Assembly (NCBI GenBank): GCA_973895155.1
Contig: OZ316896.1
Location: 6,376,166-6,440,165, forward strand
Origin: Marsupella aquatica
Taxonomy: Eukaryota; Plantae; Marchantiophyta
DNA: 64,000 nt
Direction: 5' to 3'
A program made the position numbers and the translations under genes. The notes beneath the pieces were generated by a model. It was not told the origin of the DNA. It ran no database searches and worked only from the letters and a program-made list of their open reading frames with translations. The first letter of the stretch is position 1. Each line of letters opens with the position of its first letter. This document shows, piece after piece, positions 15,654 to 50,276 of the stretch.

Positions 15654-16912
15654 TGTCGTGATAATTCAATTATTCATGATGAAATCATTATCACTAAGTA
15701 TATTATTTAGTATATAGGTTAGGTTTATATTTTGTTACGAGTTAACTAAATAGTTTGACTATTACTTATGTGCATGCAAGGTAAGCAACTATGCAAACCA
15801 CAAGATGCATGCACAACTTGTTTTATTTTCATGCATTAGTCTTTGTTTTATGTGCATGCAAGGTGAACAAATGTGCAAGCCACAAGGTGCATGCACAAAT
15901 TATTTTAGATGCATGCAAATTGTTTTATGCGCATGCATTGGTTATTTTATGCGCATGCAAGGTGAGCAAATGTGCAAGCTACAAGGTGCATGCATGCACA
16001 AATTGTTTTAGGTACATGCATTAGTTGTTTTACTTGCATGCATTATTTGTTTTGATTGCAATAATATTAGCACACATTCCTACGTTGGATGTGTGACACT
16101 TGGCTTTCATCCAAGCGTGTGGGCGTAATCCATGCCCTCTTGGATTCAATATAAATAAAATGGCGAGAGGCACTCTCTCCTCATTCCCACATTTTTTATC
16201 ATTTCCACGTCGAAGCGATCCTCTTTTTTTTCTCATCTTTCTCTTCTATTCTTTGCCTTATGTATATAGTAGTGGGGCATCATTTGGCCCGGATAGCAAA
16301 GGAATGAGTGGTAGACTTATAGATGAGACCTTAGGGAACAAGGTCTCTTTGGGAACTTAAGGGTGGGACATCCTTTGGCCCGGATAGCAAAGGAACAAGA
16401 TAGTCATTATGAATCCAGGAGGGAGAGATATTCCTAATCTTCCCTTTCGTAACCCATTTTTGGTTAGAGTCCATCTTTTAGACAAGCCATCCATGAGGTA
16501 ACATTTAACTTATCACTTTGGAGCTCAATTTGCAGCTGCTGTTATGAGTTCTAATGAGCCAATAGTATACCCAGTAGTGTCTTACCGAGAGGAGTGAGAG
16601 TGCATTATCTTTGTCCTTTATTGAAGTCATGGATCTAAATAGGAGTCCAGATGACATTCCTATTTCATTTTCTCTTGGAGATATTAGGATTGTATAACAT
16701 AGAAAAATTAGTTTCCGAGGTATGTTGATCCGCAAGTATGGTGAACTAAAATAGGATTTAATAATATATTAGTTTCACCTGAATCTTTCTTAATACCCAC
16801 CACCCTTCTTACAAGAGTTATCATTTTGGTTTAGGTATAAAACTTATGGGCATGCAAGGTTAACTTCATAAGAGCCAACATGCTCTTACCAGAAAACATG
16901 GTCACCCAGACA
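15654..16912 (+). repeat. 5' LTR
   Basis: TGTCGTG...CCCAGACA; aligns end to end with 39775-41046. Confidence 0.95.
15768..16045 (+). promoter_or_regulatory. Three ~85-90-bp tandem units with about a dozen CATGCA (RY) motifs in the LTR U3; also at ~39890-40180
   Basis: Repeated GTGCATGCAAGGTGAGCAAATGTGCAAGCCACAAGGTGCATGCACAAATT. CATGCA is the known B3 (ABI3/VAL) site; function here is inferred. Confidence 0.6.
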
Positions 16913-16916
16913 TAAG

Positions 16917-16934
16917 TGGCGACCATACTGGGGA
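16917..16934 (+). other. Primer binding site TGGCGACCATACTGGGGA (resembles tRNA-Arg-type PBS)
   Basis: Starts with TGG 4 nt after the LTR-terminal CA. The tRNA identity is from recollection of Tat/Ogre PBSs. Confidence 0.7.
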
Positions 16935-17029
16935 ACCGCTGGATTTTGGAGTTAGCTTGTGCATGTCTAAGTTTTGGTTGATGAAGAGAGATATGATTTT
17001 GGAACTATAAATCCTTCAATTGTGAGTAT

Positions 17030-19760: not shown

Positions 19761-22246
19761 ACAATGCGGGATGGTGGGGCGCTATCTCTGATGATGCGCT
19801 GATGGCTTGGAATGTGAATAGTTTGTTGACAAGCTCATCTGAAGGTGAAAGCTTGCATTGTCGAATTTCTTATGTGAAAGTGTGTGAAACTACTAGAAAA
19901 TTCAAAAAGAAAATTGCGAGGATTGAGGATATTATGCAAATACATGGATTGCTAGAGGAATGTGAGGAGATTGAAGACCTTCTAGATGAAGAAGGAGTGG
20001 TAGTCTCTTTGGAAGAAGTAATTGAAGGTCTTTCAGAGGGGAGAACTTTTATGGAAATCAATCATGAGTTGTATGGTGAATTGTCTCAATTTGTTGAGGT
20101 CAACACCAAGTACAAAACGGTGGACAAGAAAGTGAGACCAGCGGCACTTCCTTTGCCTTTGGATGCTAAGGAGAGTCTGGAGAAGGCAAGGAAGGAGACC
20201 AGTCTTAGAGATTGGACTAAGATTGGCCATAAATTCACAGAGGAGACCCTTAATCAACTAAGGATTGGCGATGATGGGTTGTTGACAAGGAGAGAAAGAG
20301 AGAAGTTTTGACAAATGATTGGTGAACATGGTAAAGCTTTTGCCTTTTATCCTGAAGAGATGGGATGTGTGGATCCTAGTGTAGTTACTCCTATGGTGAT
20401 TTTCACTGTCCCTCATATTCCTTGGGACTTGAAACCTATTCTGGTGCCCAAGGCTTTGTTGCCTAAACTTGTTGATCTATTGAAGGAGAAACTTTCCACT
20501 AGGATCTTGGAAAAAGCAGATGCACCTTATTCTAATCGTTGGTTTACCATTCGCAAGAAAAATGATAAACTTAGATTTATTCAGGATATGCAACCACCCA
20601 ACAAGGTTACTATTTGCAACACTAGGATAGGACCTATAGTTGATGAGTTTGTAGAAGAGTTTGCCGGTAGAGCCATCTATTCATGTGGTGACCTCTATTC
20701 AGGCTATGATCAGTTTCAGTTGGCTCAAAGTAGCAGAGATATCACTACAATGAGGACACCTTTGGGGCTACTTCGCATGTGTACTTTGCCTCAAGGAGCA
20801 ACCAATTCAGTGGCACACATGCAGAATGCCATAAATAAAATACTACATCATTTTATTCCAGAGAAGACTCAACCATTCCTTGATGATATGCCAATCAAGG
20901 GGTGCTTGGAGGCAAAGAAGGATGAGACTGTACGAGAAGATGGGTTGCGACAGTTTATATGGGAGCACATTCAGGATGTGAAGGCCATCTTGAAGAGACT
21001 GATTGAGGTTGGGCTCACTCTTTTTGGAGAAAAATCTTCATTTGGGCTCTGTGAAGTCCTGATTATGGGACAGATTTGTGGAGTTGAAAGGAGGAGGCCA
21101 AATGAAGGAAAGGTGGATGCAATCAATCAGATGAAAGATTGCAGAACATCTTTAGAGATGCAAAGATTTCTTGGTGCTTGCTTGTTTTACAGGGTTTGGA
21201 TTCCACACTTTGCACATATTGCTGATCCCTTGTATGGATTACTAAGGAAGAATGTGCAATTTGTTTGGACTGAGGCACACAAGGAGGCTATGCAAAGATT
21301 AAAGGAGGTATTACTTAGCCCCCTTCTTCTACGTCCCTTATGCTATGATGGGAGGCCAATCATTGTTACTGTCGATTCAAGCCCTGATGCTGCTGGATGG
21401 GCAGTAGGGCAAGATGATGAAGAGGGAAGGAGATTTGCATCAAGGTTTGGGGCTAAGGTCTTTTCAGCAAGACAAAGACATTATCCTCAAATCAAACGAG
21501 AATTATGGGGTGCAAGAACAACTTTGTGTCAAGAAAAGGTCTACTTGATTGGAGCACAAGTAATTCTTGAGACAGATTGTTTACCACTTTTAGGGATGAT
21601 TGCTAATTGTGATACTCAAGATATTGCTATGCTACGTTGAATAGCTTTTATAAGAATGATCAATCCTTAGCTTCGACATATTGCTAGAAAAGATAACCTT
21701 GTAGCTGATATGATGTCAAGAGCTCGATATGATCATACTGAAATATCTGAAGCAGTTCAAATAATGAGTGGAGAATTTGAGATTTTACAATTTCAAGAGG
21801 AACTGTATTCTGGACAGTTGCTTTTGATTGGGAGGTACCTTAGTACTCTTCAAAGGTCTTTTGAATTGACAGATGATGAGTTTCAGCGATTACGGAAGAA
21901 GACTTACAAGTTCATGCTGAAGGATGGTGTCTTATGGAGAAGATCTTTGAAGAAAGGACATGCTCCATGTAGAGTCCTTGATACTAAAGAGGAGAAGAAA
22001 AAGGTCTTGTGGGACTCTCATGATGCAGTTGAAGCACGACATCGAGGAGTTAGAGCTACTTATGAGCGGATTCAGAGATGGTATTGGTGGTCAGACATGT
22101 ATGTGGATGTGAAATCATATGTTGGGTCTTGTAAGACTTGCCAATATTACTCTAAAGTTTGATTTAGGGATGGGCTTAATCCTACTAGTCCTTTATCATT
22201 ACATTTTCAGTGGGCAATAGATGTGGTGCACATGCCATTGGGAGTT
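19742..22246 (+). pseudogene. pol 5' part: RT, RNase H, integrase HHCC and start of the core
   Basis: DLYSGYDQF, LPQGATNS, FLDD, VTVDSSPDAAGWAVGQ, ILETDCLPL, SHDAVEARHRG...CKTCQ, WAIDVVHMPLGV| then CACTA. Premature stops at 20309, 21638 and elsewhere. Confidence 0.93.
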
Positions 22247-22269
22247 CACTAGTAGAAACCGGGGGGTAT

Positions 22270-22580
22270 TTAGACCCCATTAAACGACTATTCAGTACCG
22301 TATAGGACTTGGAAACGACTGGGAAGGACTCTAGTCCTTTATAGGATTGCGAGTCGTATGTTTTGTTACTATAATCAACTGAGTCCTTTATAGAACTGGT
22401 TTATAAGTCGTTTAATAGACTGGATTTTCAGTCTATTTTAGTCTTTGTGTGGGTAGCTTTGGTGAGTCGTTTTTAGTCTTTTATGGGCTGCGATGATGAG
22501 TCGTTGGGAACGACTAAAAAGGTTATGGAGGGTAGTCTTTAAATATACTTTGTGGGGTATGTATAAGTCTTTTATGTCAA
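22270..22580. repeat. CACTA subterminal motif array (AGTCGTT / AACGACT variants in both orientations; also 38665-38785)
   Basis: More than a dozen short motifs next to the TIR, typical of TnpA-binding arrays. Confidence 0.7.
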
Positions 22581-23072
22581 CTGGATATGAGTGATGAAGA
22601 CCCCACTATACTACTTGGAATGAACCCACTCTTGTGCACAAATAACATATTGCATTCATGTTTTATTGTGTACTTGGAATGAACTCACTCTATAAGTTCA
22701 CCATTCATCATGTTAACATTAGAATACATAGTTTCAGAAAGCCATCTTCTATACCATGTACACTAATATGAATTCACAGATTCAAACTTCATAGACTACA
22801 AAGAAGGTCACAAAGTATTCCTCTATACCATACACACTAATACTGAAATGATAAAATAGATTCAAGTATCATAGACAATCACCATAGAGCCATAGTTTGA
22901 CATCAATCACTTGTTTCATACATACAGAATTCAGAAATATCAATGTCACACACAACGTCTCCTTCATCCTCTTTACCAAATGGAAAAATTGGTACAGATA
23001 TTTCTTGGATCTTTCCAAGGCAATGTCAAAATGTGACACAATTCACATGATGCTATCTACACTTGCATTCAG

Positions 23073-26000
23073 TCACTGCAGACTAACACACTCTGATGGC
23101 CAGAGCACAAGAGATCCTACTGCATCTGCAATTATTTCCTGAGGTGGATCATCGTCTCTATTCGGAAATGGCAAATTACAATCAGATACAATCACTGTAG
23201 TCAACAACACTACTACATGGTCATCCGGGACCACTTTGCCATGGAATTTTGCATGATCCGGTCGCAAAATGCTTGTACCCACACATACCTGCGAGTCATC
23301 CTCCCATGATAGAAGATTATGGACTGGCTCTGCTGTGGCTATCACCTCCACCTTACCCTGGCTGTTTTTCTTGGCTTTCCTGGGTGGCTTATACATGACA
23401 TTATTCATACCTTGGTTGCGAGTCATGACTTTGGCACGAGTGTTTTGTGCTGGTGATCGAGAATTGGCTACACTCTTCTTCAAAGAATCTGCATCCATAT
23501 TTGACACTTCTAATTGTGTAGCAGGATTTCCCTACGACATCATCTCAGTATCTGCCAACATTGTACTTGCTTCAATTGAAGCATCTACAATCTTACTTGC
23601 ATCCAATGTTGCTCCCAAGTTTCGACGTCGCTTCACCCTACTCCCACTTGGTTGAGAGTCTGTCAACTCTACATCAACTACAATTCAGTGTCATGTCCAA
23701 CATAAGTCAATCACTCATCACATGTGCTAAATGTACATGTCACCAACCACAAAGTTGTCACTATCTCCTTACCATTATGAACAACCTTCTTCCCCTTCTT
23801 TGCCATTGCCATATGCTCCATGTCTGCTTCTGTTGATCAATAAACACACCACAATATTCAGGTTGAATCTATTAACCACTGAATTGTTGCTCAACATTCA
23901 TATAGAGGAATTTAAAGCATCAGCTTACCTGATACCTCCTTGGCTATGGTCACTGAGGCACTGGGCACATCTTCTTCATTATTGCTCTTTGAATCACCTG
24001 ATACATCAATCATGATGTCACTTCAGATCCCAGTTCATCCAACCAGTTCTTACAGAAAAGATTACCTCCAACCGGCTTAAGCTTCACAAAACTCCATGCA
24101 CTTTTCAAATGTAATGTACTGGATCATAGCAGGTTACCTGTCTCAACAACCTTCTTGCCCTTCTGCTTACTGATTACAGGGTCCTTCTCTGCCTCCACTC
24201 TTCCTGCATTCAAACCATTCACTCAATTCATGAAAACTTACTTCTAACATTTGAACATAGGACACAATGAACAATGGGCCGGTGTCATTTCCATACCTGT
24301 GTCAGATTTGCCAATTCCCTTTTTTGTTAACAAGGGCACACTTTGTACAATGTTGCCCTCATTGTTTGGTTGGGAACCACCCAATTTTTCAATCACAAGC
24401 TTGAAATTAGATTCCACTGATGCAAGAAGGTTCGCACAGATGCCTCCACAATATCCAAACGATCAGCCAATTTACTTTCCACTCGAGGGAGTCCACACTC
24501 TAATGACTTCAACCGTTCACACATCTCTGTGAGAGTTGTAACAGTTCCCTGTCATAACACAACTTACATATCTCAGATAACTGTCCCCAAGAACTGGTTG
24601 CTTACTTCCTACTACATTTCTTTCTGATGCTCAAGGCCAAATAGTCACAGAACATACAGAATTACAACATAATCACCTGTTTGGAAGTTACACTTGTCAC
24701 CTCACTCCTTTGTTTCATGAACTCCTCTCTCACTTCTTGTGCTGATGGTTCTTCACCTGTCAATTTCTTCTGCAGTCCACATCAACATACATATGAATGA
24801 AACCAAGTGTTGATTGTCAATGAAAATGTAATAATGGTAGCAAGATGATAAGTTTGAGGCTTACTATCAGGCATGTCACTGCCTTACCAATTGTTCTTTC
24901 ACTAGAGCATAACTTCCTCTCCCAGCCTGTGAAAGGTGTTTCACTTTGCCTCGAGCATTTGACATCAGTTCACTCTTGCTCTGTCCAGCCTCCGACATGA
25001 ACCCTTTGATTAACCGTGTCCATTGATCCAGTTCCAATGATGGGGGTGGTGGCATTCTCCTGTTAGAACCATTGTCTATCCACATCCTTTTCAACCTATG
25101 CCTCTCTTGTTTCAAAATCCTCATTGCATAATCTGATATGCAATCTTCAACTGGGCCCTTACCATCATTACCAACATACTCCCACCGTTCAAGAATGTCC
25201 TTGCAGATAGCAGCCCAATTAGCTTTGTTCTGACTCCTAAACTCTGTAATGCTCAAATCTAACCAACGCAATACTTCTCCTCTTAGGTCAGAATGCCAAC
25301 GGTTCTTACCATCACATGTGGGAGTTATCCAACCTTTGGAATTCACTTCTACTTTACCAAATTTGTTACTGTCTCCTGCCTTGGTACTCCCTGAAGCGCT
25401 ACTAGGTGTCCCTCCACGGCCTGGTGTCCCCCCACGGCCTGGGGTCCCTCCACGGCCTGATCTCCCCCCACGGCCTGGATTGCATTGTCCAAACCTCCCT
25501 GGAGTCCCTGCACATTTACAGGATCCATTTACAGTCACTTACATTAGGTAAGTATGAATCATAAATCCCGCTGCCAAATATACAGTGGACTTCAAAGCAA
25601 TTCTGCAATGACCAAGTTACCTCTCCCTTGGTGCATAGATGGTTCTGGACCACCTGTCCTATTGCTTTGTCTTGATGAATTAGGGGCGTTTCTCCCGCCT
25701 GTGAATGATTGCCTCCTATCTGAACATGGATGGCCTTTGTTGTTTTCGTGATTGTCCCAATCAGAGTCTGCATACCAACAGGTACATGCCACACTCATGG
25801 ACCTATAAGATAAACTCTTTGCCCTAGCTACACATCAGATAAGTGCATATTGAGCTAAATCTCTACTACCATCACAAAATCACTAGCACAAGGCACTTAC
25901 TTGTCCAATCATCCTCCTCACCTTTCCATTGCCCTCTGTACCCGTCTCTACCACGCTCTGGGTGTTCATATTCATCCCATCCATCTTCTGCTCCATCATA

Positions 26001-26261
26001 GTCATCATCATAATTATCAGGCGTCCCTTGCCAATAACTCTGGCTCCTTCTAGGGTATGGATTATGTGATTTCTCTCTAGCTGCCCACCTACCTGGGACT
26101 TGATGAGGGCCCTGTGCATCTTGCACAGGTGCATTTTTCTGTGAGCCCCCTGCATCTGGGTCTCCATCCATATCCAATCTTTCCTCTTCACCCCACTCTC
26201 CAAGCCCCATGTCTGTCTCCATGTCATCACCCTCTTCCCCCATAGCTTCACCCACAACCAA
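23073..26261 (-). CDS. Multi-exon TnpA-like protein (Ptta/En/Spm Transposase_24-like domain and C-terminal Tnp1-like domain)
   Basis: Exon 24876-25538 has QWTRLIKGFMSEAGQSKSELMSNARGKVKHLSQAGRGSY. Last exon has FHGKVVPDDHVVV...LPFP...IADAVGSLVLWP. Acidic N-terminal exon. Exon boundaries and intactness not fully resolved. Confidence 0.75.
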
Positions 26262-26412
26262 ACAGGGAGAATCAGCACACTAAATTCAAAGTATCAATCA
26301 ATTTCATGCATATCCAACTATCCTAAACATCATTCCAGGCAGCAATTCCCGTTATGTGACTCTGTGCAGGTAGTCATCCTCAACCTCATACTTGCCAATC
26401 GCCAGCTGTTGC

Positions 26413-29400
26413 CTATTGCAAATCATCAACCTCATCATATTCCATTTGCCCAGGTTCATCATATGTCTCTCTCAATGTTAAGGGGATGTAGTCAGTCCCT
26501 GCCCGAGTTGGAAGTACAGTCTCATGACTAGGATGCTCGAATGCAGCATGGTCATCCAAACTGAACTCTACTTTACTTCCATCCATCCGCCTGTTCCGTG
26601 CTTGGCTATGGCATACCACCCTCCAGCCATGTGACTCCTCCACATCTGCAAAGAAAGCCTGTTCAACTTGGCTAGGGAAAACAAAAGGCTCAGACCATTC
26701 TGGTACTCTGGACCTAAAATTGGCCAACAAGAACCCATCATGATCACGCTTCATGGTGGCCCTTGGTCTCTGCCACTCTGATTTCACCCATGATCCCTTC
26801 ATCAATATCACTAGGACACTTGTGTTACCATAATTCAACACCCAAATGTCGGTCAACTCCCCCACGTAACCCATCTTCATCCACCCCCTCTGTTCTTCAG
26901 AGGTTCTCTGCTCAAACACAGAAATCAAACCACAATCATATGATACACAATGGTCACCCTGCTCATCCCTCACTCGATAATGATTTCCATAAGCTCTCAT
27001 CCGTTTGTAGGTCAGAATAGACAATCGTGGTGGCACAGATAGAAGATACAAATCCTTCTCCATATCTGGGTGATGTCTACTATGCTCTCGAATTGTCACC
27101 CGAATCCACTGCTCGAACTGTGGGAAGGGATCCTGCTGCCCAGAGTGTGCAACTTTTTGCATATCATATTCCCTGCATTATGAGGTACAGGCATAGTTAG
27201 GTCTAAACAACACATGACAACCTAAGATCACCCTTGGAACAGACAAGAAGCATCACAACAAAGGCAAGTCAATTCAATCACTCACCTCCACCATGGTTGC
27301 ATAGGCTCTGTGTTTGCCAGCACATATGAATGAGCCTTGTCTCGAATCGCAACAGGCAGCTGAACAGCACGTCCCACACCTTCAACAACCTCGCCACTCA
27401 CTCCATCATCTTCACCAGATTTCCAAACTCTTGTCATAGCTTCACCAGACCCAGCCATGTACTCTGTTAGGAATCCCAACGTCTCATCCTTAATGTACCC
27501 CAATGCCATGGAAGCCTCTGGCCTGTAGTATGTTCTCACATGACCTTTCAACAACTTCATGTATCGCTCCATAGGGTACATCCATCTGGTACTGACTGGC
27601 CCATACTGCCCTAGCTCTTCTACCACATGGATTAGGAGATGAGTCATAACATCAAAGAAAGCAGGGGGGAAGTATATCTCCAAGTCACAGAGGACATAAG
27701 CAGCATCCTGCTTCAACTGCTCCAATCCTTGGGGATCCCACACTTTCACACATATACGGCGAAATACATTGCACAGTCGAAGAATGACATTACGGACTGG
27801 TTTCTGCATGAGACCTCTGAGGCATAGGGGCAGAATGTGCTGCATCAACACATGGTAGTCATGTGTTTTCATACTGCCAAGTTTATTCTTTGTAATATGC
27901 TTCTTGAAGGCACCAGCATAGCCAGAGGGCACTTTCAGACAGCTCAATCTATACAAGAATGTCTTCCATTCATCCTGTGTGCACACATAGGGAGCTTGGA
28001 ACTTGAGAAGTACATTGGGATTGCTTGCATGGGGCTTCAACCAAAGGTGAGGGCGAATCCCCTTCTATTGCATATCAGCTCGAACTGCTCCTGTATCTTT
28101 CTCACCCGACAAGAACTTCAGCAAGCTCTCACAAATATTTTTCTCAATGTGCATGACGTCCACATTGTGTTTGCTGGGCTCGAATTCCTGCACTCCACAA
28201 AGCAAAGAATTCAACAACAGAAACACTAATTAACCACATAGGAGGATTGTAACCAACATCAATCCACCATTGCTCCAATCTAAAATTGCAATCATACAGG
28301 GGCTGGAGGCTAAGTACATTACCCTCCAGTACTCCAACTCCAAGTCCATCAAGGTCTGTCTTTTCACACCGTGTTTCACCACTGGATCCTCAGGTTCTCG
28401 ATCAGTGGCACTTCTCTTGTCCCAATCAGCCTTCCTGGCTGCCCACCTCAGGACTTGCTCTCTGGTGACCCTCTGTGGTGGGCCACGAAGCTCTATTTTG
28501 TTGTTGAAGTGTGCAATTTGAGACCGTGTGTGCCTGTAAGGATGATCAACAGGCAGATACCTTCTATGCCCCTGAAATTTCATACTATGCAGGGCATGCG
28601 ACCACTCACTTGTCACATTTTTCCCACATGGTGTGCACCCCACATAGCCCTTTGTCACTCGTCCAGATATGATGCCATGGCCTGGGTAATCTGCTATATC
28701 CAGCAAACAAATTGCATGCAGTCTAAAGGGGCTGGGTCGAAGAAGCCCCTTCAGAACATCATGGGTTAACACCCCTTCTATCCACAAAGTCTTCCACTCT
28801 TCCACTGCTGGAGCCAACATGATATCTATGAATTGCTCGGTCACAGAAGCTGGTCCAAGGATTAACAGCACCATCATGACAAAAAACCTCTTTGTAGTCA
28901 TCCATGGGGGAAGGTTGTAATTTAGCAGCGTAACCGGCCAACATGAATAACGGTTGTTTTTGTCTCCAAATGGGTTTACTCCATCCAGTGATAGACCAAA
29001 TCGAAAGTTCCGCTTCTCTACAGCAAACTGTGGCCACCTCTCATCAACAAATTTCCAATGGTTGGAATCTCCAATGTGACGTTGCAGGCCATCACTGCTC
29101 TTGTTATCAGGAGTCCATGTCATCAGCTTGAAAATGGCAGGGCATCTAAACAGACGTTGTAGTCTAGGAATGAGAGGAAAATGACGAAGAACCTTGGCAG
29201 GGTGTGTACATTTCCCTACATTCTTGTACCTATGCTTACCACAATGAGGGCATGTCAATTTATCTGCATGCTCTTTGCGAAAGAGAACACACCCATCAGG
29301 GCATGCGTCAATAGACACATAGTTCAGCCCAAGGTTAGACATCAATTTCCTAGCCTCGTACATATTTTTTGGAATTGAATTACCATCTGGTAACACATTT

Positions 29401-30113
29401 CGGCGCAGGAAGGTCAACAACTCTGTCACAAATATATTGGGAACATTGTGATTGCCACAGATGTTCAACAACAACACGACAAAACCCAGCTTGGAGCAGT
29501 TCGACCCCTCGTAGATAGGAATGCAAGCTTCTTTGATGTGTTTTGGGCCCCCAAACACCCACTCCCTCTCTGCTGCACCTTCCCCAATGTCAAAGTCAGG
29601 TTGAGCTTGGCCGTCGCCAATGTGTGGCTGCGGTTCATTGTCCTCTTCTGATTCCACTGTGTCGTAAAAAGCATCAAGGTCTTCAAAAATCTCTTGAACC
29701 ATTCTTGGGACATCCATCCCACCGTCCTCAGTGATTGCCTCTGCATCTCCATCTTGGTCATCCACGTTCTCATGTTGGACCCCAGGACCATCCTCTGCAC
29801 AATCTATGTCCTGCTCTACGTAGTCTCTACGCCTAGCTGTATTAGAATCCACAAAGTCAGCTCTCCACTCTTCATCAGAGGAGTCTTCTTCTGCTGGTAC
29901 ATTCCAAACCCTCCACCGAGGGTGCCTTTCATGCCGCAACAGGTGAAGGTGCACAGTGTTCAAACTCAACGACTTGAATCCTTGGCACTGTGTGCATGGG
30001 CATCTCATCCTCCTACTCCTACCTTGGGCGGCCCGGGCTTGTTCACGCATCCACAATTTAGAATCATGATGCCTAATCCTAAATGGGTTGTGAAGAGGCA
30101 ACCTTGGAGCCAT
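26413..30113 (-). pseudogene. CACTA TnpD/Tnp2 transposase (Transposase_21, DUF4218, DUF4216); 3 exons, one premature stop
   Basis: Exons ~30113-28323, 28187-27286 and 27173-26413 with GT-AG ends. Motifs MRCPCTQC, IDACPDGC, LSLDGVNPF, DIADYPG, HNVDVMHIEKNICE, MKTHDYH, RWMYPMERY, EPFVFPSQVEQAFF. In-frame TAG at 28065-28067. Confidence 0.93.
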
Positions 30114-30439
30114 CACTATACACACGCACTCAGCACCCTGTCATTTTATTATGCAAGTGAAAAATACACTTCCTGTTAAGGATTTCACCCCCGACTGTAC
30201 TTGCCAAAATACGTAACGTTCCAAAAAAACAAAAAAACAAAAAATATAGGTGCCTGAGTCATGTACCTATTCTCAAGTGAATGAGACAAAATTCCTAAAT
30301 GTTTGAGGGTGTCAACTCCTCCGCTGTCCTCACATGTACTGCCTCTGCACGTACATCCATGACCATATCAGAGTCCAATCATGTATAGTCATAGACACAG
30401 GTGCCAGGTGCGAGACCGGTGTGAGATGTCCTCATCTTA

Positions 30440-31009
30440 CTACCACATCAAATACGGATACCAATCCTGTTGTCGATGCCACTCAGCCCTGAGGTACTCA
30501 GGCATGTACATTAAGTCATCAAGGTCTAAACCCTGCTCATGCCATGGTGGTCTTCGATCCGTGCCTACAAGCAGTGGCAGCAGTGCCCTCCATGGTGCAC
30601 ATGTTGCTACCAAGTCCCTCCACTAGGTACTAATTAGTCTATATTTGCAGATATCTTGTGCGCCAGACACCACAAGAACCCTCGGCCAGACATGTGTAAG
30701 AACTATATCATCTGCCAAATCAGGCAACAAGGAACCACCTACAGCATCGTGCTTGTCTAACTCATCTGCTGAAAAGTAAATGTCCTCTTCCGACTGTGCA
30801 TCCTCATTCACCACAGCATTCACAACACATCCAAGGTCTGCAGGCATTATCTCGGATGGAGCTACACTCTGTCTGGTTACCAATCCACACAAGTAAGCCC
30901 AAGCAGTAGCCATGCACGATGCAACCCGTAGGAGGACCCTACATAGGGCCTGACGGTCTGGAAGAGGCAGCATACCCACCAAAGTCTTCAGCCAAACAGA
31001 GCCCAGCAA
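30440..31009 (-). pseudogene. F-box-like protein carried by the CACTA (one in-frame TAG at 30623-30625)
   Basis: SLLPDLADDIVLTHVWPRV...ICKYRLIST*WRDLV matches the F-box pattern LPxLPDD...L..VSxxWRxL. The frame continues 60 codons past the stop. Start codon uncertain. Confidence 0.65.
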
Positions 31010-31149
31010 GTAGATTCACAGTCACACCCCACGCAGCAGGAAACAACAATCACTTCAACTGCGACCAACCATGACAAGATGAGTTAGTTCAAGGATCACA
31101 TTTATTACAAAATTGTGTTTTATACAAAAATATGAAGGACTCCTACTCC

Positions 31150-31998
31150 TCACTCTCTCCCACCTTTGCTAAGCATACATCTCCGCTGAATCTTGGAGGG
31201 CCAGGCCTCAAAAATATCAAAGTCCCAAGCATTCTGTCGCTTCCCTCTAGCTGCTGATTCTAGAAGCCAATCAGGGGAAAGCACCCAAAGATTGTTGTTC
31301 ATGACAAAATCACGCACTGTTGTCTTAAAGAATTTTCTACATATTTTCATGTATGACAGACCTACAACATGAGTGGAGGTTTCTGTTAGACTCTCCTCCA
31401 CTGTCCCACCTAGCTCAACAACTATAGACTTGTACAGTCTGCACTTAGTCTCCCCAATTCCTTCTTCTGCAAATACCACACTGAACCCCTTCATAATGGT
31501 ATTTCTCTCCTTGCCATGCTCATTCAATATAGCATCTGCACGCATAGGATGGTGTCCTATGTTGACAACAGGTCCATATTGGACAGAAGCAAAGTTGGGT
31601 TTCTCTGCCGCTGCTTCATAGGCTTCCTTTTCAGCCAAAGCCTCTGCAGTGGCCTCCTCACTCTCCCACAACTCATATTGCTCAGTACTCTGTACACACC
31701 TATGTTTAACAGAATCGGTCAGCCAAGAGACTTCAACTACTTTTAGACCTTGGTTGGTAATGGCAGAATCAATGAAGGACCATGACCACTTGTTCATCAC
31801 ATCCAGCCATGTCCCCGCAACAACATGTGTAGTCTGTGGAGTGATGTCCTTGACTTCAGTCCCATGGAACTCTGAGAATCGTTTTTGTACGATTGGCCAA
31901 CTCACTTGGGTGAACCCATAGTGGCCAGGAATCAAAATGGCTTTGATTCCAGCCAACAGAGGCGGGTGGTCAACCTTTGTACGTTTCCTAGAGGCCAT
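31150..31998 (-). CDS. Intronless tandem-BRCT protein (~282 aa) carried by the CACTA
   Basis: Two BRCT signatures: TTHVVA...VVEVSWLTDSVK...YEL and LGGTVEESLTETSTHVV...VLSPDWLLES. Basic N-terminus RKRTK. TATAAAT ~80 bp upstream. Confidence 0.85.
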   Translation of the reverse strand: MASRKRTKVDHPPLLAGIKAILIPGHYGFTQVSWPIVQKRFSEFHGTEVKDITPQTTHVVAGTWLDVMNKWSWSFIDSAITNQGLKVVEVSWLTDSVKHRCVQSTEQYELWESEEATAEALAEKEAYEAAAEKPNFASVQYGPVVNIGHHPMRADAILNEHGKERNTIMKGFSVVFAEEGIGETKCRLYKSIVVELGGTVEESLTETSTHVVGLSYMKICRKFFKTTVRDFVMNNNLWVLSPDWLLESAARGKRQNAWDFDIFEAWPSKIQRRCMLSKGGRE

Positions 31999-32586
31999 GT
32001 ACACACGGGCCACCTAATCACTGCAGACCGGAAGATAATGCGTTCACCTGATAATCGGAGGGCCCTTAAAATGCTGCATTTATAACTTGGTCCAGTCCAG
32101 TCATCTGGTGAGTCTCTGCTCCGATTCCAAACGGGAGAAATATTGGGACAAACGTACTAGACACCTGCAAGCATGCACCTCATAGTTTGAATATGTGCCT
32201 TCACAATATTGAAGGTGACAAGTGCAATTGTTTTGTGATGCCACATACAGATGTTGTAAATGGGCAGACATTCAATGAGAATACAAAATGTTGGTACACT
32301 TTAAGGGAATTCTCGCAAATTAAATAGCCTTGTAACTTATATGCTCATAATGAGAAGTCCTGATTTAATTTAAGCAGTGTCATGTAAGTCGTGATCAAAA
32401 TGATTGCAGAGTTAAAAAAGTTCCTAGAAGGCTTAAGGGCAGTTTTTGAAGGCATGTACCCAGGAACAAGTAATGAACTTAGGGTACTTGTTGCCTAAGC
32501 ATCCTCTCCTACAGAGGTCCTTCTTCTCAAAATTGGAATGTCTGCAATCTCCAAGGTATCCACATCAGGTGCACTATGCATGTATA

Positions 32587-33276
32587 TTATTCAGGTTCAA
32601 AGCCAAGAGTGTGATCTCTCATGGGAGTGTGCAAAGTAGGATCTATGGCATGGCGATGACAATAGAAGATCCATTGATCAACACCATGTGCAGAGTGATC
32701 ATAGATGTGTCTGTCACAAGCATAGCCTTCTGCTTGACGCTCCTTCAAACAATGAAAGTGCCACATGGTGGGACACCTAACACAGTGGACTATGTCCACC
32801 CAGAAATCTTCATCGTGCTGACCACATGCCTTGCACTTATGAAGTGGGCAAGCTGTGGCAAGATCGGGCAAATATGAAAAACAAAAGAACCTCACACAAT
32901 ATCTGTCAGGGCATTTCCTAACAAGTGGTGGAGCATCAACAGAGCCCTCATAAGACCCCAACTTCCCACACTGTGCACACTTAGCCTGCTTCTCCAAACA
33001 ATCAGTGCACATCCAGCCTCCCTGGTGTGCTGACGGGAGGCCCACCCCTGGACAGTTGTTTTCTGCAGCAAGGTCAGACTCCGGGTTGAGGTGGAAATGC
33101 CTCATGCAAGGGCCCTCACATATGGCTAAGCCACCACCATCGTCACAAATGGCACAACAATGAGCTGCCTTCTGGAAAATCTGACTTGCGGAGAAGTTAC
33201 TACCATCTGGCCCAACTACACCTGTGTTGCTCACCTCTGTCCCCCGCTTCTTGGCTCGGATTTTAGGGCGTGCCAT
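32587..33276 (-). CDS. Intronless stand-alone EDM2-like PHD-finger protein (229 aa) carried by the CACTA
   Basis: CAICDDGG...CEGPCMRHFH...CTDC...CAQCGKLGS...CPLHKCKAC...CVRCPTMWHFHC...IFYCHRHAIDPTLHTPMRDH follows, as I recall it, the EDM2 PHD region (CPLHKC...CRRCP.SYH..C...IYC..HEID..L.TP.RDH). N-terminal basic patch. Confidence 0.85.
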   Translation of the reverse strand: MARPKIRAKKRGTEVSNTGVVGPDGSNFSASQIFQKAAHCCAICDDGGGLAICEGPCMRHFHLNPESDLAAENNCPGVGLPSAHQGGWMCTDCLEKQAKCAQCGKLGSYEGSVDAPPLVRKCPDRYCVRFFCFSYLPDLATACPLHKCKACGQHDEDFWVDIVHCVRCPTMWHFHCLKERQAEGYACDRHIYDHSAHGVDQWIFYCHRHAIDPTLHTPMRDHTLGFEPE

Positions 33277-33945
33277 GCCTACGCATGAGACAGATAGTAC
33301 AATTTAGCAGAGTGCACGGACAATACAATTTAGTGCAGTGTACAAAAAGTACAGTGTAGCATATAGACTAGAGTGGTAATTGCTACTGCAATGAAATGTT
33401 CACACACATGTGCAGAGTAGACATACTTTTTGGTTTGTTGAGCCCACACTAAAAACTGATCCCCTCGTACAATAGCTCCACCTACACCTCAATTTTATGG
33501 CTATGATTCACCAAAGGAGATCTGCAACAAGATTTAATGCATTTGAATCACATATAACAGTCGTGACATGTAAAACATGCATTTTTTGAACAGGATTGGT
33601 ATCAAGCAGTGTGATCAGGGTTGTAATTTATACATCCTAAATAGGCTATGATAGTGAATGAGACAAATAAGTTAGGCATAAATCACTTTTTCCAGGTTAT
33701 CACATGGCCCATTAATTCCAGTCTTTGAAAGGAGACTTTTAAGTGAGCGTGCTAGCCTCTTAAATTAGGATATTGTACTTAGTGCAGCCATAATAGGATA
33801 AGTTATGTACTGTTGACCCTAAACCCTGGACCCAAAATTGGTCATAATTCAAAATCTTAAGTAAATATCCTCTCTGTTCAAGTCAAAGTGTTAAGTTATA
33901 GGTCAATGGTCTCTGGTTTGTGCATGCGGTGTGACAAGTGGTCCT

Positions 33946-34395
33946 CTAGAGCGTGTGATCCAAACATGTGTAGACACCAAAGTGACCGGTGGTGGGGTCT
34001 GGGAGGGCAGGACAAGTGACATCGCCAGGCACACTACAGGATGGCGAGTGGTTCCAGATGATACATTGTGCTCTATGAAAAAACCGACATCCAAGAGAAC
34101 GGTCATCCAACTCTAGGCCAGAAGCCCTACAAGCAGGACAGTCATATTGGCAACTGTGCACACACCCTTGGGCCCTAATTTGTGGCGGGTCATGTACAAG
34201 AGACAGAAATACCAAGGATGTTGGGAAGGGTGGAGAAGCAGGTACAGGCCGGTTGTAGTTGTTCCTGGCAACAACTGGGTACTCAAAGTACCATGCAGAC
34301 TGGGCTGGAAGGATCCCAAGTCTGACATACTCAAGGCGCAACATCTCTGCCTTGCGTGCAAGCCGCACATGTTCAGCGTTGCGGGTCCTCACCAT
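33946..34395 (-). CDS. Hypothetical Cys/His-rich protein (149 aa) inside the CACTA
   Basis: ATG-started open frame (MVRTR...) on the same strand as the other cargo, with CVHSCQYDCPAC...CRFFHRAQC. No family recognised. Confidence 0.35.
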   Translation of the reverse strand: MVRTRNAEHVRLARKAEMLRLEYVRLGILPAQSAWYFEYPVVARNNYNRPVPASPPFPTSLVFLSLVHDPPQIRAQGCVHSCQYDCPACRASGLELDDRSLGCRFFHRAQCIIWNHSPSCSVPGDVTCPALPDPTTGHFGVYTCLDHTL

Positions 34396-35774
34396 AAGTG
34401 TTGCTTTTGTGGAGATGTCGTGTGTTCACGTCCTCTGATAAGCACCTTCGATCAGCAAGGTGAGCAGGAGCTGTACTTGCCTCACCAACAGCAACCAACC
34501 TTAAATTATCAGTTCCCACTCACTGTGTCATTCCATTGGTTCCAGCTAGGGGTCACAGTGTAAACAGAGCATGAAACACTCCTAATCAACTTGCTTACAA
34601 ACTACAATATCCAGAAAGAGTGAAAGTCTCACCCTCCAGTGAGCAGCAGAGAGGTAGTTCACTAGATGTGTTGATGTGCAGTTAAACCTCCACTATTGCT
34701 TACTTCTGGTGTATGCTGCTCAGAAGAAGACATATTAGTAGCAGCAAATTGCAAATAATGGCCATAAGCAAACCGTGAGAGTTTGCAGAATGCTACGACA
34801 AATCCATCACAGCAGTGCTCCACAGGAATGAAACCAAGCAAAATTTGGTGACCTCGGCCAATGACAAGGCCAATGTAGTGAACAATCCTTGACCGATCAG
34901 GATATGGATTGGAATTACAATTAGTCAGCTCTTCTTCTTTGTTTTCTAACTCTGGGGGAAATGAGCATGACCAGGGAATTCTCTGAGAAATAGAAGTGCA
35001 CAGGGAAAATGAAATTGGCTCATTCAGCTGCGCAAGACCGACCATTGCAGCATACTTGGACAGTTGTTCCGCAATACACTAGTATGACAGGAACTCAAGG
35101 AAACATTTGTGGCAATGTCTTCACAGGAAAAGAAGAATCGCTAAGTACAGTATTCTTAATAGTAGTTTCATTCTAATTCTGAAATCTACACATAGGATGG
35201 AAACCCAGGACATTTCTCATGAAAATTGAAGATCCATTCAACAACTCCATGATAGCCTATTCCGCATTGTGTCCGTCCCATGCAAGCGAGGGGTGTTCAG
35301 CCGAGCTTAGTCTAACCACGAATGATTGTTCTGGAAGCAATTGCGACAATGTTTTGGTAATTTTCTCCTACCCAACTCAATAGCTCACAAACATGGCATT
35401 GGACCCATTAACAAATTATACTTGCCATCATTCTCAACTGTATTACATGGCCCACACTGCTGATGTCCCTGACTCTTAAGGGAAACTCATCTCCTGGGCC
35501 AGCAACATCTCAGATTCTACAAAAATAAGAAACTATGAAGACTTATTGAAGTCATATCCTGTGATTGTAGCATGTATGATTCACTGGGACTGCAAGCAGT
35601 TCTAGATCCTGCTGCACTTTATATACAGCAGCAACCTGAGCTCCATGAACTTGTTTTTAATAGACGTGCGTTTGACCATGGCTACAACTCCAAAACAATC
35701 AGTCATCCAATCAAATCATAACAAAACCCACCCGCAAGCTGAATGTAGAGGATAGAGACAGAGAAAATCACCGG

Positions 35775-36014
35775 GGCAATGAAGTCGGATCACAGGGTGC
35801 GAAACTAGTACTCAACAGGGTAAGACCGATCACAGCAAACAAAGCACGGAGCTAGACCACCAAAACTCCAGCAAGACAGTGTCGTGTCCATTTATTTGTA
35901 GGGAATGAAGTCGGATCACAGAGTGTAAAACTAGTACTCAGTAGGGTAAGACAGATCACAACAAACAAAGCTAACACAACAAAGCACATAGAGGAGCAAA
36001 ACTCCAGCAAGACA
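35775..36014 (+). repeat. Diverged ~125-bp tandem duplication
   Basis: AATGAAGTCGGATCACAG...AAACTAGTACTCA...AAAACTCCAGCAAGACA occurs twice. Confidence 0.8.
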
Positions 36015-38819
36015 TAAATCAGACCTCGCAGCCTTTTGACTAGCAAAGGGAGATAGTCTACGCTTTCCATTGCTGGTCACAGCGCGACGGGCAATCAGGA
36101 TGATGCCATGCCGAGTAGAAGAACAACAAAGCATTCTATAAAAAGCACTGAGGTTGGCGTTATAGTAAAAGTGGTAGTACTTCTAGTAGCGCGACCAACT
36201 CGCTAAGTGACAGTCCGGAGTAGCTTACCTCCGAGAAGAAAGCCAGAGCAGTTTAGCAGAAATCCCCAAGAAAATCCCCACTCTGAAGATGGTAAGCTTG
36301 CAGCTGCTCCCCCGGGTGCTCCCCTCAACCTCGCCACTTCTATTCTGAGCAGCGCAGGTCCTCTCCACCCTCTCACCTTGCACCTCCTGAACAGGTGACC
36401 AGCACTATCCACTCCCACCGCAACTGTGGACGGTCCCTAAAAAAATGCAGATGACAGCGACCAATAGACAAAGGATTACATGCGTAGACCTGGCAGAAAT
36501 CTTCAGTGCAATGCTTGACTAAGCTGACCAGTATTTCTCAATAGGGTACCAAAAGCCACAGACAATACAAAAGGCAGTGACAAGCACAGGCGGTGGCAAC
36601 TAGCAAAGGCAGTGGCAAGCAAGCAATCAATGATGATAGCGGCAATCGGCAATGGCGGTGGGAGGCAGCAATAGGAATCACCTGAATGAAGTACCAATCC
36701 GCAGCGGGAGGGAATGTCAACCTTCTTGTCAATTGCAGACCACCTCCGACCTCAAGGTCTCCCTCACGTCAACACCTAAAATGTAAGTGATGACCCAATG
36801 TATCCTCCCTGATCGCAGCTCGTCCCCGCCCGCAGCTCGTCCCCACCCGCAGCTTCTCCCCGCATTGAGGTCCTCCTCGACCACAGCTCTTGCAGCTGCT
36901 AGGCCCAGCCTTTGATGGCCTTCTGCAATGTTTGCAGACAATGTCGCCTCCCTTTAAGCAGCTTGCCTTCCGTAGCAGTAGAAATCACCTATGCTCGAGC
37001 AACTTGAATGAAGTCACAACAATGGGAGCAGGCGGCGACGGGACTGTCAGCTCTCAAGCGCAACCTTCACAGCTCACTAACATTGCAGGACTGTAAAAAA
37101 TGACCGGTTCACGTTGTTACCGTAGCATCCCTGGCACACCAAATCCTTTGTCTCTAATTCCACCAACCAAGCGTTCGATGGTTGACAATGTGCAGCTGAG
37201 CTAGGAGAAGAACTGAATGATTGTGGCTGCTCTTCTCTGCAGTCCAAGCACCCGGCTGGCAGCTCCGCAAACCCTGATCGTAGCTGCAATCTCTACTCCG
37301 TTGATTGAAGAGCCTCCCTCTTCAAAGCTTGGTTGACCTAGCTCTACAATTGACGGAGCTTATCATCCTTTGCATCAAAAACCCTCCACCACCCGACCTT
37401 CCGCGTACTTCAGGAAGCTCCTTACCACCAAGCGCTTCTCGGGGATGCCTCGCAACAATGTCCTTACCACCTAACGACTCTCAAGGCTCTCCCAAACCAA
37501 TGCAAACCCCTTGCAATCTAATACACTATGTCCAAACAGAGGCAGAACTGTCAAAAGCGCTCGCAGTAGTGGACGCAGCAATGTGAAGTGAATGAGCTCC
37601 GACCTTCCCTCGCAAAATGCTTACCCTAAACTCTGCTCGTATGCTAAACTCACAAACATTCCGCAGGTCGTTCTGTCGCAAAGCACAAATGATGGGGCCC
37701 AAACGCATGGGGCGCGGACACTCGATACTTCCCTTCACAAAAACCCAGTTTCATACGATGACCAAAGCATACTCACCCTAACCCAAGACTTAGTGCAAAC
37801 AGGACCCTAAACGCTAATCCAGGGCCCGTTTCCGTTGAGTTGAGCCGTTATGCTTGATAAGTCATGGCCAGAGTCTTGATGTAGGGGAACAATGTGGACT
37901 TAATTAGGCAACAAATGAGTACATTTGGGTGAGGGTAAAGGATAACTTTAAATAAATCCCTTTGGTGACAAAGATGAGGCCACTTAATCAGTTGTGCCCC
38001 ACCCTAACCCCCCCCCCCTCCGGGCCCCCCTCATGGAATTACCTCTATCAAAAGTACCCTAAGTTATGAAAAGTACCCGTTACATGGACCTGTTTTGAGA
38101 GTTGAAAGATAATCAGAAGTAAAGGGACCATGGAGAAGAGGGGGCCAATGTAATTAAGTCAAGCATCACTCATTCAAAATCCACATGGACATAGTTGGGT
38201 ACTATATGAGACACCAGGGGACAAGACATTTTTGAAGGGTTGGCATATTTACCCTCATCCCTAAACTTGGATGTCTTGCACATAACATCCACTCTCCTAC
38301 CCCAAGTACAAAACAACTCCTAACAACTTAGGCCCAATGTAGTCACTTGTGCCCAACCATGTTCATTAAGAGCCTAAATGTTTTCATTTCACCCACATTG
38401 CATGTTGTTGGGGGTTCCATGGTCTGTTATTATAATGTAACTCCTCATGTGAACTTTGTGAAATTTAGTATTTAAGGGACCATGGAGAAAGTAGGCCAAT
38501 GGAGTAATTGGAACCATGAACCTTTTTGGTCACAAATAAGGCCATCTAATGAGTTATGCCCCTTGCTATCACCATCTTTATAGAATTAACCCTCTTCAAC
38601 ATAAGTGATCATTACCCATGTAGTGCTAGACTATTCACCGTTCACAAAGTAGCAAGGACCCTTCTCATAGTCATTTAGAGAACCATATAACACTAATAGT
38701 CTTTTATAGTTTTCAACAAAACCGACACAATGAGAGCGAGTCGTTTCAAGTATGGAAAAAGGACTTAGTGGGCTTAGTCCTATAAGGTATGGTCTAAATG
38801 GCCCCGGTTTCTACTAGTG

Positions 38820-39679
38820 GTTAGAGGAGCAAAGTACCTTGTCCTTGCAAGAGAAGATTTATCTTCTTATGTGAAAGAAAGAGCTTTGACCTCTAATACT
38901 ACTGAAGCAGTATGCAGGTTTGTACTTGAAGATATCATTGCACGTCACGGTTATTTTGTGCAAATGAGAGCAGATAGAGGAGAACTCAATTTGGATGAGG
39001 CTGCGGATTTCTTTGATCGATTCAACATCAAGCTCAAACTTACTACTGCCTACAACCCGGAAGGCAATGGGAAGATTGAGCGAGGGCACCCACCGATTGT
39101 AAATGCCTTGGTAAAGTCTTGCCAAGGAAAAGCATCAATGTGGCTAAACCTTTTATCGTTTGCTCTTTTAGCAGATTGGATGACATGCACTTCAACAACA
39201 GGATTTGCACCTATCAAATTGGTCTGTGGATATTTACCTTTAATGCAAATTGAAGAGAATGTTCAAAGTTGGAGAACAATTGATTGGAAAGATGACATCA
39301 CTCGAGAGGAATTATTGGAACGAAGGATTGAGCACTTTAGCCAGACCAAGGAGAAATTGAGGAGGCTTTACTAAGGCTAAAAAAGGCTCGTGAGAAGAAT
39401 AAGGAGCAATTTGATAAGACTCATCGTCTGAGGCCAATTCCAATCCAGAGTGGAGATTGGGTATTGATCTATGAAGCAGGACTTGAGCAACAATATTCTA
39501 CCTTAAAAAAGTTTGCACGTCATTGGAGAGGACCATTTGTTGTTGAAAAAGTCAATCCTAATGCAACCTACTTGGTTAGAGAACTGGATGGAGCGATTCA
39601 TCGCACTCCCTATGCAGGAAAGCGAGTGAAATTGTTCAAGCGGCGAACTCACTTTATGGCAAAAGAGAAAAAGTTTTGA
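38820..39679 (+). pseudogene. pol 3' part: integrase core and GPY/F module, no chromodomain
   Basis: LAREDLS, RADRGEL, AYNPEGNGKIERGH, WRGPFVVEKV...TYLVRELDG. Confidence 0.92.
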
Positions 39680-39774
39680 ACTAGATGACTTTGAAGCTTT
39701 GGATGAGGATGAAGATTATCATGATCTATAGGTGTGGTGCATCCGGAGGTTGCACAGGTTTGGTAGGGGTGATA

Positions 39775-41046
39775 TATCATAATAATTCAATTATTCATGA
39801 TGAAATCATTATCACTAAGTATATTATTTAGTATATAGGTTAAGTTTATATTTTGTTACGGGGTAACTAAATAGTTTGACTATTACTTATGTGCATGCAA
39901 GGTGAGCAAATGTGCAAGCCACAAGGTGCATGCACAAATTGTTTTAGGTGCATGCAAATTATTTTATTTGCATGCATTAGTTGTTTTATGTACATGCAAG
40001 GTGAGCAAATGTGCAAGCCACAAGGTGCATGCACAAATTATTTTAGATGCATGCAAATTGTTTTATGCGCATGCATTAGTTGTTTTATGCGCATGCAAGG
40101 TGAGCAAATGTGCAAGCCACAAAGTGCATGCATGCACAAATTGTTTTAGGTGCATGCATTAGTTGTTTTACTTGCATGCATTATTTGTTTTGATTACAAT
40201 AGTACTAGCACACATTCCTACGTTGGATGTGTGACACTTGGCTTTTATCCAAGCGTGTGGGCGTAATCCATGCCCTCTTGGATTCAATATAAATAAAGTG
40301 GTGAGGGGCACTCTCGCCTCATTCTCACATTTTTGATCATTTCCACGTCAAAGCGATCCTCTTTTTTTCTCTCATCTTTCTCTTCTATTCTTTGCCTTAT
40401 GTATATAGTAGTGGGGTATCCTTTGGCCCAAATAGCAAAAGAATGAGTGGTAGACTTATAGATGGGACCTTAGGAAACAAGGTCTCTTTGGGAACTTAAG
40501 GGTGGGACATCCTTTGGCCCGGATAGCAAAGAAACAAGAGAGTCATTATGAATCCAGGAGGGAGAGATATTCCTAATCTTCCCCTTCGTAACCCATTTTT
40601 GGTTAGAGTTGATCTTTTAGACAAGCCATCCATGAGACAACATATAACTTATCAATTTGGAGCTCAATTTGCAGCTGCTGTTATGAGTTCTAATGAGCCA
40701 ATAGTATACCCAGTAGTGTCTTACCGAGAGGAGTGGGAGTGCATTATCTTTGTCCTTTATTGAAGTCATGGATCTAAATAGGAGTCCAGATGACATTCCT
40801 ATTTTATTTTCTCTTGGAAATATTAGGATTGTATGTCGTAGAAAAATTAATTTTCGAGATGTGTTGATCCGCAAGTATGGTGAAGTATGATTTAATAGTA
40901 TATTAGTTTCACCTAAACCTTTCTTAATACCCACCACCCTTCTTACAAGAGTTATCATTTTAATTTTAGTGTAGAACTTATGGGCATGCAAGATTAACTT
41001 CATAAGAGCCAACATGCTCTTACCAAAAAACACGGTCACCCGGACA
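39775..41046 (+). repeat. 3' LTR, preceded by a degenerate PPT (GGTAGGGGTGA)
   Basis: Aligns with 15654-16912. The start TATCATA is TGTCGTG with G>A changes. Ends CCCGGACA followed by TSD CCGG. Confidence 0.93.
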
Positions 41047-44404: not shown

Positions 44405-44602
44405 TGTTGTAAACCCTAGTTTACCCCTTAACCATAGGGCGAGAACCCTTAACCATAGTATGAGAACTCCTAACCATAGGACCAGTATAAGGGCATTTGC
44501 CTACCATGTAACCAAGGGGATATATATATCCCCTCATCAATAGTAATGGATCTTATCTTGTTGGAGTATCTTTGAGCGTTCCTTTAGTTGTCTATTACAA
44601 CA
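44405..44602 (+). repeat. Copia 5' LTR
   Basis: TGTTGTAAACCCTAG...TATTACAACA. Confidence 0.97.
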
Positions 44603-44960
44603 CGTTATCAGCACGAGCCAGTCTCTAAAATCATTTTTTTTCAAGCAGATGCAATCGAGTTTTACACGAGGAGAATGCTCGTAAAGTGGCATTTTTTTTA
44701 GAAACTGCCATAACCGTTTTTTTTTCTTGGTCTCCATTCTTTTGCCTCAGAGTTGAATTTTTTTACAAAACACGAAATTTCACATAGAGCATCAATTCGG
44801 GACCAGCATATCGAGAGTCCAAAGGACTAATACTTTATTGGCATGATTGAAAGCTCCCTCAGCTCCATATACAAGCTTCCAACCGGTCAATTGTACAATC
44901 GAGATACTTCACTCGATTCAATCTTCACCAAAGTTCTTAAATCAACTGACATCCCGAATA

Positions 44961-50078: not shown

Positions 50079-50276
50079 TGTTGTAAACCCTAGTTTACCC
50101 CTTAACCATAGGGCGAGAACCCTTAACCATAGTATGAGAACTCCTAACCATAGGACCAGTATAAGGGCATTTGCCTACCATGTAACCAAGGGGATATATA
50201 TATCCCCTCATCAATAGTAATGGATCTTATCTTGTTGGAGTATCTTTGAGCGTTCCTTTAGTTGTCTATTACAACA
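50079..50276 (+). repeat. Copia 3' LTR
   Basis: Identical to 44405-44602 and followed by ATAAC. Confidence 0.97.

Follow-up and report, generated by a model that had tools for sequence, protein, structure and literature searches.

The domains of host type that plant transposons are described as keeping include Ulp1/KAONASHI, VANC, NDX-B and Peptidase_C48 (PMC13317346; PMC13547354; PMC8978399), and the term BRCT is absent from the main texts of these three papers. The known accessory genes of plant transposons act mainly on silencing. Cut-and-paste transposons also depend on host repair, both for gain of copies and for survival of the breaks that they make, and coupling of a transposase to Ku has been described for Sleeping Beauty (Ku70; PMC7827188) and for Paramecium PiggyMac (Ku70/80; PMC4148214).

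The BRCT domain of human DNA polymerase lambda (Pol lambda) alone reaches breaks via Ku, and R57 and L60 of its helix 1 dock between Ku70 and Ku80 (PMC12056208). According to the same source, Pol lambda BRCT mutants in human cells lose gap filling and keep blunt end joining, and catalytically dead Pol lambda depresses gap filling as long as R57 is intact (PMC12056208). Arabidopsis Pol lambda starts with a 13-aa NLS followed directly by the BRCT (PMC4444747); LIG4 and XRCC4 are reported binding partners of this BRCT, and earlier work links Pol lambda to repair at sites of transposon excision (both cited in PMC4444747).

Here we describe a tandem-BRCT gene, intact and unnamed, that a complete CACTA element carries as cargo in a 64,000-nucleotide stretch of Marsupella aquatica DNA (the window). 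No BRCT cargo in CACTA/EnSpm elements was found in the literature searched, in which the longest lists were covered by their 20 best-ranked titles and of which subscription journals and Repbase formed no part.

A Tandem-BRCT Gene in a CACTA Element

The carrier is a member of the CACTA (En/Spm) group, having the terminal inverted repeats (TIRs), 3-bp target site duplication (TSD) and TnpD transposase of such elements (Table 1), the last with Pfam matches to Transposase_21 (E 1e-58), DUF4218 (E 2e-27) and DUF4216 (E 2e-5). It splits the integrase-like region of an LTR retrotransposon that we take, from domain order and motifs, to be of the Ty3/Gypsy type, and because it interrupts that element it is the younger insertion of the two. 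This setting, unstated in the earlier note that drew attention to the open reading frame (ORF), is the main context in which the gene has to be read. The BRCT gene shares its strand with TnpD and lies upstream of it, between the PHD-finger gene and the broken F-box-like gene, in the minus-strand order Cys-rich, PHD, BRCT, F-box-like, TnpD pieces and TnpA-like piece. The state of the F-box-like neighbour implies that cargo in this element can decay.

Table 1. Features of the tandem-BRCT gene, the CACTA element that carries it and the retrotransposon hosting both, in window coordinates
Feature	Position	Strand	Basis
Tandem-BRCT ORF, 282 aa, single exon as read	31150..31998	-	ORF reading, Pfam, AlphaFold2
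Basic N-terminus, aa 1-11, RKRTK, putatively NLS-like	31966..31998	-	sequence
BRCT repeat 1, aa 12-113	31660..31965	-	Pfam halves, family alignment, model
Predicted acidic helix, aa 114-132, then low-confidence linker to about aa 164	31603..31659	-	
BRCT repeat 2, aa 165-265, the more Pol lambda-like of the two repeats	31204..31506	-	
TATAAA, candidate TATA box, about 85 nt upstream of the BRCT ATG	32079..32084	-	
AATAAA, candidate poly(A) signal, about 45 nt past the BRCT stop	31101..31106	-	
CACTA (En/Spm) element, 16,573 bp, carrier of the BRCT gene	22247..38819	-	
TIR, 18 nt, starting CACTA; GTT target duplication at 22244-22246	22247..22264	+	
TIR, 18/18 complementary; GTT target duplication at 38820-38822	38802..38819	-	
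TnpD transposase pieces: Transpos_assoc, Transposase_21, DUF4218, DUF4216	26413..30125	-	
TnpA-like ORF piece; Transposase_24 weak, E 0.017	24876..25538	-	
F-box-like frame, cargo; in-frame stop at 30623-30625; Pfam F-box weak, E 0.2	30443..31009	-	
NSD-like PHD-finger ORF, 229 aa, basic N-terminus, cargo	32587..33276	-	
Cys-rich ORF, 149 aa, no known family, cargo	33946..34395	-	
LTR retrotransposon, presumably Ty3/Gypsy type, hosting the CACTA element; LTRs at 15661-16912 and 39782-41046, 94.6% identical	15661..41046	+	

With four single-frame cargo ORFs upstream of TnpD (30443-34395, minus strand), the element is unusually rich for a CACTA; the PHD and BRCT ORFs each start with a basic NLS-like stretch, and a further open frame of 127-138 aa at 34665-35078 (minus strand) has no Pfam match. 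All nine element ORFs tested (23073-34395), cargo and transposase alike, have a CpG observed/expected ratio of 0.24-0.42 and a CHG ratio of 1.0-1.5, a pattern suggestive of a common past of CG methylation without CHG loss. Elsewhere in the window, a retrotransposon at 44405-50276, presumably Ty1/Copia-type from its domain order, has identical 198-bp LTRs and a single unbroken 1575-aa ORF and is a very recent insertion. Host gene exons occupy 54415-57346 (plus strand), the last piece matching the TRM13 tRNA methyltransferase family (E 3e-13), and nested inverted repeats, MITE- or foldback-like, lie within a LINE-like region at 4735-5210.

The BRCT ORF is intact from ATG (31998) to TGA (31150), and the peptide quoted in the earlier note falls inside it. 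An ATG ORF of at least 282 aa occurred in none of 100 simulated elements with the same dinucleotide make-up. The flanking TATAAA and AATAAA agree with the ORF being a separate gene, without proving it. Pfam recognizes BRCT (PF00533) in two stretches of the protein (E 6e-14); submitted alone, the repeat 2 half scores E 2.6e-9 and the repeat 1 half E 4.6e-4 (20.8 bits, slightly under the 21.3 cut-off). The Pfam scan found no catalytic or other further domain in the ORF, and the Pol X catalytic core and 8-kDa domain are absent both from it and from the surrounding ORFs scanned. The product is no polymerase and not a member of Pol X.

An AlphaFold2 model built on a 16-row alignment contains two BRCT folds (mean pLDDT 80, pTM 0.47; an alignment of only two rows gave pLDDT 33 and was unusable). 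In fold searches it matches BRCT chains at Z scores as high as 15.7 (rmsd 1.8, 96 residues), and by profile and fold alike the protein belongs to the BRCT superfamily. The description first given of it, a stand-alone two-BRCT protein lacking a catalytic domain, holds, the only Pfam domain being BRCT in two stretches and the model having two such folds. The acidic helical linker described with it stands for aa 114-132, which are modeled as a helix, and not for the rest, where confidence is low (134-153 and 160-163); the linker is best viewed as an acidic helix followed by a loose stretch. Given a pTM of 0.47, the mutual placement of the two BRCTs is unfixed in the model.

A Family of Two-BRCT Proteins

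A word-indexed search returned a single relative, P0001, 62% identical to the window protein. Profile search of 1.84 billion protein representatives gave 24 matches, comprising 17 family members, six Pol lambda-like BRCTs and one TOPBP1-like protein. Counting cluster members, there are eight other distinct two-repeat proteins of 264-313 aa, 17-61% identical and of the same layout, which together with the window protein appear from their sequences to define an unnamed two-BRCT family. Only two small relatives are named: one is a liverwort protein, the other an algal gene model. Among the 23 profile matches scanned, no Pfam domain other than BRCT types was found. Queries with the family alignment and with residues 10-115 of P0023 retrieved no longer or fused relatives, which is weak evidence. 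Searches for the loci of relatives yielded 191 and 590 pattern matches in metagenome contigs and 19 in viral contigs, none confirmed. Five small proteins (P0024, P0018, P0012, P0009 and P0017; one of them from Riccia fluitans, 143 aa) have a single BRCT followed by a charged helix and may be natural one-repeat forms of the family.

G46 and W64 of repeat 1 are invariant in the family and W73 and W92 nearly so, and the N-terminus of P0001 is likewise basic (KRRK). Identity between the window protein and P0001 is 67% and 66% in the two repeats, compared with 32% in the linker and 35% in the tail, a domain-biased conservation from which we infer that the gene has been kept by selection. Compared with P0001, the linker could be read with a compensated frameshift, but this solution arose under just the lowest of the five penalties and runs through a stop, and was not accepted. 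The C-terminus of the window protein (31150-31200, minus strand) is basic, in contrast to the acidic ends of P0001, P0004, P0006, P0015 and P0027, and may be derived.

Near-identical DNA occurs in five of 13 public runs (three studies, three organism labels), one of which may be the window's own source; these runs contain 46-78% of the words of 30600-33400. The bins over the BRCT gene were covered in all four runs compared in detail, at lower depth in two of them, contig depth being neither copy number nor usable for ranking parts of the element. The earlier note had allowed that the ORF might not be conserved among copies, and the presence of the region in several runs lends this no support. 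A joint across the whole CACTA element was seen in 4/4 runs compared and could stem from other copies of the retroelement; no contig in these runs joins the BRCT gene to the transposase. One run holds a deletion derivative without 27737-33957, in which the cargo is lost too. One contig of run X1, as deep as the main copies (1799), leaves the window sequence between 31461 and 31553 (aa 149-180). Either the linker would be replaced there or 91 nt would be lost and the frame broken, and the departure tells against the repair role proposed below; it coincides with the stretch most unlike P0001. At the 5' end of the element, ~3 kb without long ORFs (35300-38300) has much lower contig depth in 4/4 runs and is possibly a subfamily-specific or captured segment.

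These data bear on whether the ORF is simply a passenger, that is, a fragment captured from the host and multiplied along with the element, serving at most as silencing camouflage and having no protein function. Captured fragments mostly decay (PMC13317346), the F-box-like neighbour is broken, and an intact frame in this copy is unsurprising because the element is young, with perfect TIRs and TSD and a position inside a retroelement with 94.6% identical LTRs. A passenger is nevertheless unlikely, given that the two-repeat frame and layout are kept in eight relatives down to 17% identity, that the domains are twice as conserved as the linker and tail (versus P0001), that signals resembling a TATA box and a poly(A) signal lie on either side of the ORF, and that the protein searches disclosed no near-identical host donor. 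Even as a passenger, the ORF would represent a BRCT family without a name, carried by a CACTA element that is complete and young.

Origin of the BRCT Repeats

No near-identical host donor gene was found in the word-indexed search or the profile search of 1.84 billion proteins, and the near-identity to an unrelated host gene by which the earlier note expected its reading to fall did not materialize. The two repeats of the window protein are alike: the profile of each scores the other at 41 and 56 bits, versus at most 27 for TOPBP1 repeats, which points to the duplication of one domain. Six of the seven non-family matches among the 24 are Pol lambda-like BRCTs. Two of these are N-termini of animal-type Pol lambda, namely P0025 (E 2e-17 to human Pol lambda) and P0019 (E 2e-8), and a profile of all six reaches 70 bits, compared with 38 for the family ranked next. 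A Pol lambda-like domain is the best non-family match of 24/26 family repeats, or 23/26 when P0024 and P0018 are set aside; these two are doubtful as Pol lambda-like and may instead be single-repeat family members. This ranking is partly circular, since the Pol lambda-like panel was itself retrieved by the profile of the window protein.

On the algal protein P0023 the family profile reaches 82.6 in one domain, and on TOPBP1 it reaches 62 across two. In P0023 the BRCT is followed by a stretch of 30% Ser+Pro, the layout described for Arabidopsis Pol lambda (PMC4444747); its direct match to Pol lambda is weak (E 0.2), and we regard its identity as Pol lambda as only moderately shown. Against PDB, the repeat 2 profile has Pol lambda as its best single domain (33.6 bits, versus 29-32 for BRCA1), the whole-family profile places Pol lambda (29.3 bits) below BRCA1 and TOPBP1, and the PDB matches of the single window sequence do not include it. 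Full-length Pol lambda is likewise not among the 24 profile matches. Pol lambda is found mid-list in the fold search (Z 11.1, versus 15.7 for PARP4), a kind of search that does not separate BRCT subfamilies.

A tree of 38 repeats, from which eight near-duplicate or short proteins were left out and in which TOPBP1 is the sole outgroup, recovers a repeat 1 clade (support 96/86) with P0023 and P0024 as its unstarred sister (93/76) and places repeat 2 without resolution. AU tests rejected none of three groupings of Pol lambda or TOPBP1 with the family (p 0.22, 0.43 and 0.26). The likeness to Pol lambda proposed in the earlier note is accordingly upheld by the ranked searches (6/7 non-family matches, and the repeat 2 profile against PDB by a small margin) and left unsettled by the tree, the AU tests and the fold searches. 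Because the repeats are alike and the nearest non-family BRCTs are Pol lambda-like, we consider that the ORF probably derives from the N-terminus (NLS-BRCT) of a host Pol lambda.

The tandem arrangement could instead have been captured whole from another repair protein, such as the LIG4 tail or a TOPBP1 pair, in which case the product would be a decoy for XRCC4 or for checkpoint partners. Among the top Foldseek matches are tandem BRCT chains of LIG4 type from NHEJ complexes, similarly spaced, although at an rmsd near 20 A and 13-18% identity. LIG4, whose tail has a long inter-BRCT linker and binds XRCC4, falls short of Pol lambda both with the family profile (22-26 bits) and with repeat 2 alone (17-21 bits). 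One of the 24 profile matches is a TOPBP1-like protein, and a grouping of TOPBP1 with the family is not rejected by the AU test; the repeats are nevertheless nearer to each other and to Pol lambda-like domains than to TOPBP1 repeats. In an alignment to BRCA1, which is weak (E 0.1), the Ser/Thr-Gly and Lys positions of the phosphoserine pocket fall on Y27 and S74, so that a BRCA1-type phosphopeptide pocket seems to be absent from repeat 1, which also tells against such a module. Overall, we regard capture of a ready-made LIG4 or TOPBP1 tandem as improbable.

Ku-Contact Residues and Proposed Role

Mapped through P0025, residues K185, L188 and Y189 of repeat 2 align to R57, L60 and F61 of human Pol lambda; repeat 1 has S, I and V at these positions. 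P0001 and the window protein share K, L or M, and Y at the three Ku-contact positions of repeat 2. The R57 column is R in 6/6 Pol lambda-like rows. Over 26 family repeats it is R in six and K in four (basic in 10/26), and it is basic in three of the nine second repeats of full-length family proteins. These counts make a Ku-docking decoy plausible for the subfamily of the window protein and show that it is not what the whole family conserves.

We estimate a probability of about 40% that the BRCT protein is a transposon accessory adaptor or decoy for host end joining, altering gap filling and derived from a captured Pol lambda N-terminus. Under this model, a CACTA element would have captured the NLS-BRCT front end of a host Pol lambda, and internal duplication would have given the two repeats. 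Repeat 2 is predicted to dock by its first helix at the site used by Pol X, namely the Ku70/80 bridge and/or LIG4-XRCC4, and repeat 1, with its conserved tryptophans, may provide a second, new contact. The non-catalytic product could then alter gap filling at TnpD-made breaks and so affect excision footprints or pathway choice. As the product has no polymerase, we predict altered gap filling rather than a shutdown of NHEJ; the blocking of NHEJ proposed earlier is probably too strong, human Pol lambda BRCT mutants being described as keeping blunt joining (PMC12056208). The bolder proposition that a plant CACTA lineage keeps a doubled Pol lambda docking end as a decoy on the Pol X site, thereby steering break repair, appears doubtful.

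It is quite possible that the protein is a selected accessory factor, Pol lambda-derived or not, whose BRCTs have been redirected to partners other than those of end joining, such as proteins of chromatin, silencing or the checkpoint, or TnpA/TnpD, and that it acts alongside the PHD and F-box-like cargo. The family conserves the repeat 1 tryptophans W64, W73 and W92 and not the Ku-contact column, the neighbours of the gene are a PHD ORF of chromatin-reader type and an F-box-like frame, and accessory proteins of plant transposable elements are described as fast-evolving with many host contacts (PMC13547354). The retention of K, L or M, and Y at the Ku-contact positions of repeat 2 in the window protein and P0001 argues the other way.

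If an end-joining adaptor or decoy is the correct reading, the protein would be a transposon-encoded modulator of host repair, a counterpart of the known anti-silencing proteins, and the choice of repair pathway at donor sites would be directly testable with one small gene. Mimicry of the docking of a repair polymerase would add DNA repair to the arms race between transposons and their hosts, and the protein could become a small tool with which to probe end joining in plants.

Comparison with Known Systems

The window protein resembles the N-terminus of Pol lambda in having a basic N-terminus directly before a BRCT and a G-I-G-type loop before helix 1. It differs in having two repeats, in lacking the Ser/Pro region, the 8-kDa domain and the polymerase domain, and in being transposon-borne; identity to Pol lambda in profile alignments is 20-27%, and R57 is not conserved across the family. 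With BRCA1, TOPBP1 and LIG4 it shares the presence of two BRCT folds in one chain. Unlike these proteins, it has a linker of about 50 aa and a packing not fixed in the model (pTM 0.47), its repeats look like one domain duplicated, and a BRCA1-type phosphoserine pocket appears to be missing.

As in the cases of KAONASHI/Ulp1 and VANC in MULEs, NDX-B in EN/SPM and Peptidase_C48 in CACTA elements, a domain of host type resides in an autonomous-looking transposon, apart from the transposase. Those known cases of captured domains concern silencing, SUMO/ubiquitin proteases or chromatin. Sleeping Beauty and PiggyMac provide the precedent for cut-and-paste systems that engage Ku at their own breaks; there the transposase itself binds Ku, whereas here a separate, element-encoded protein is predicted to do so.
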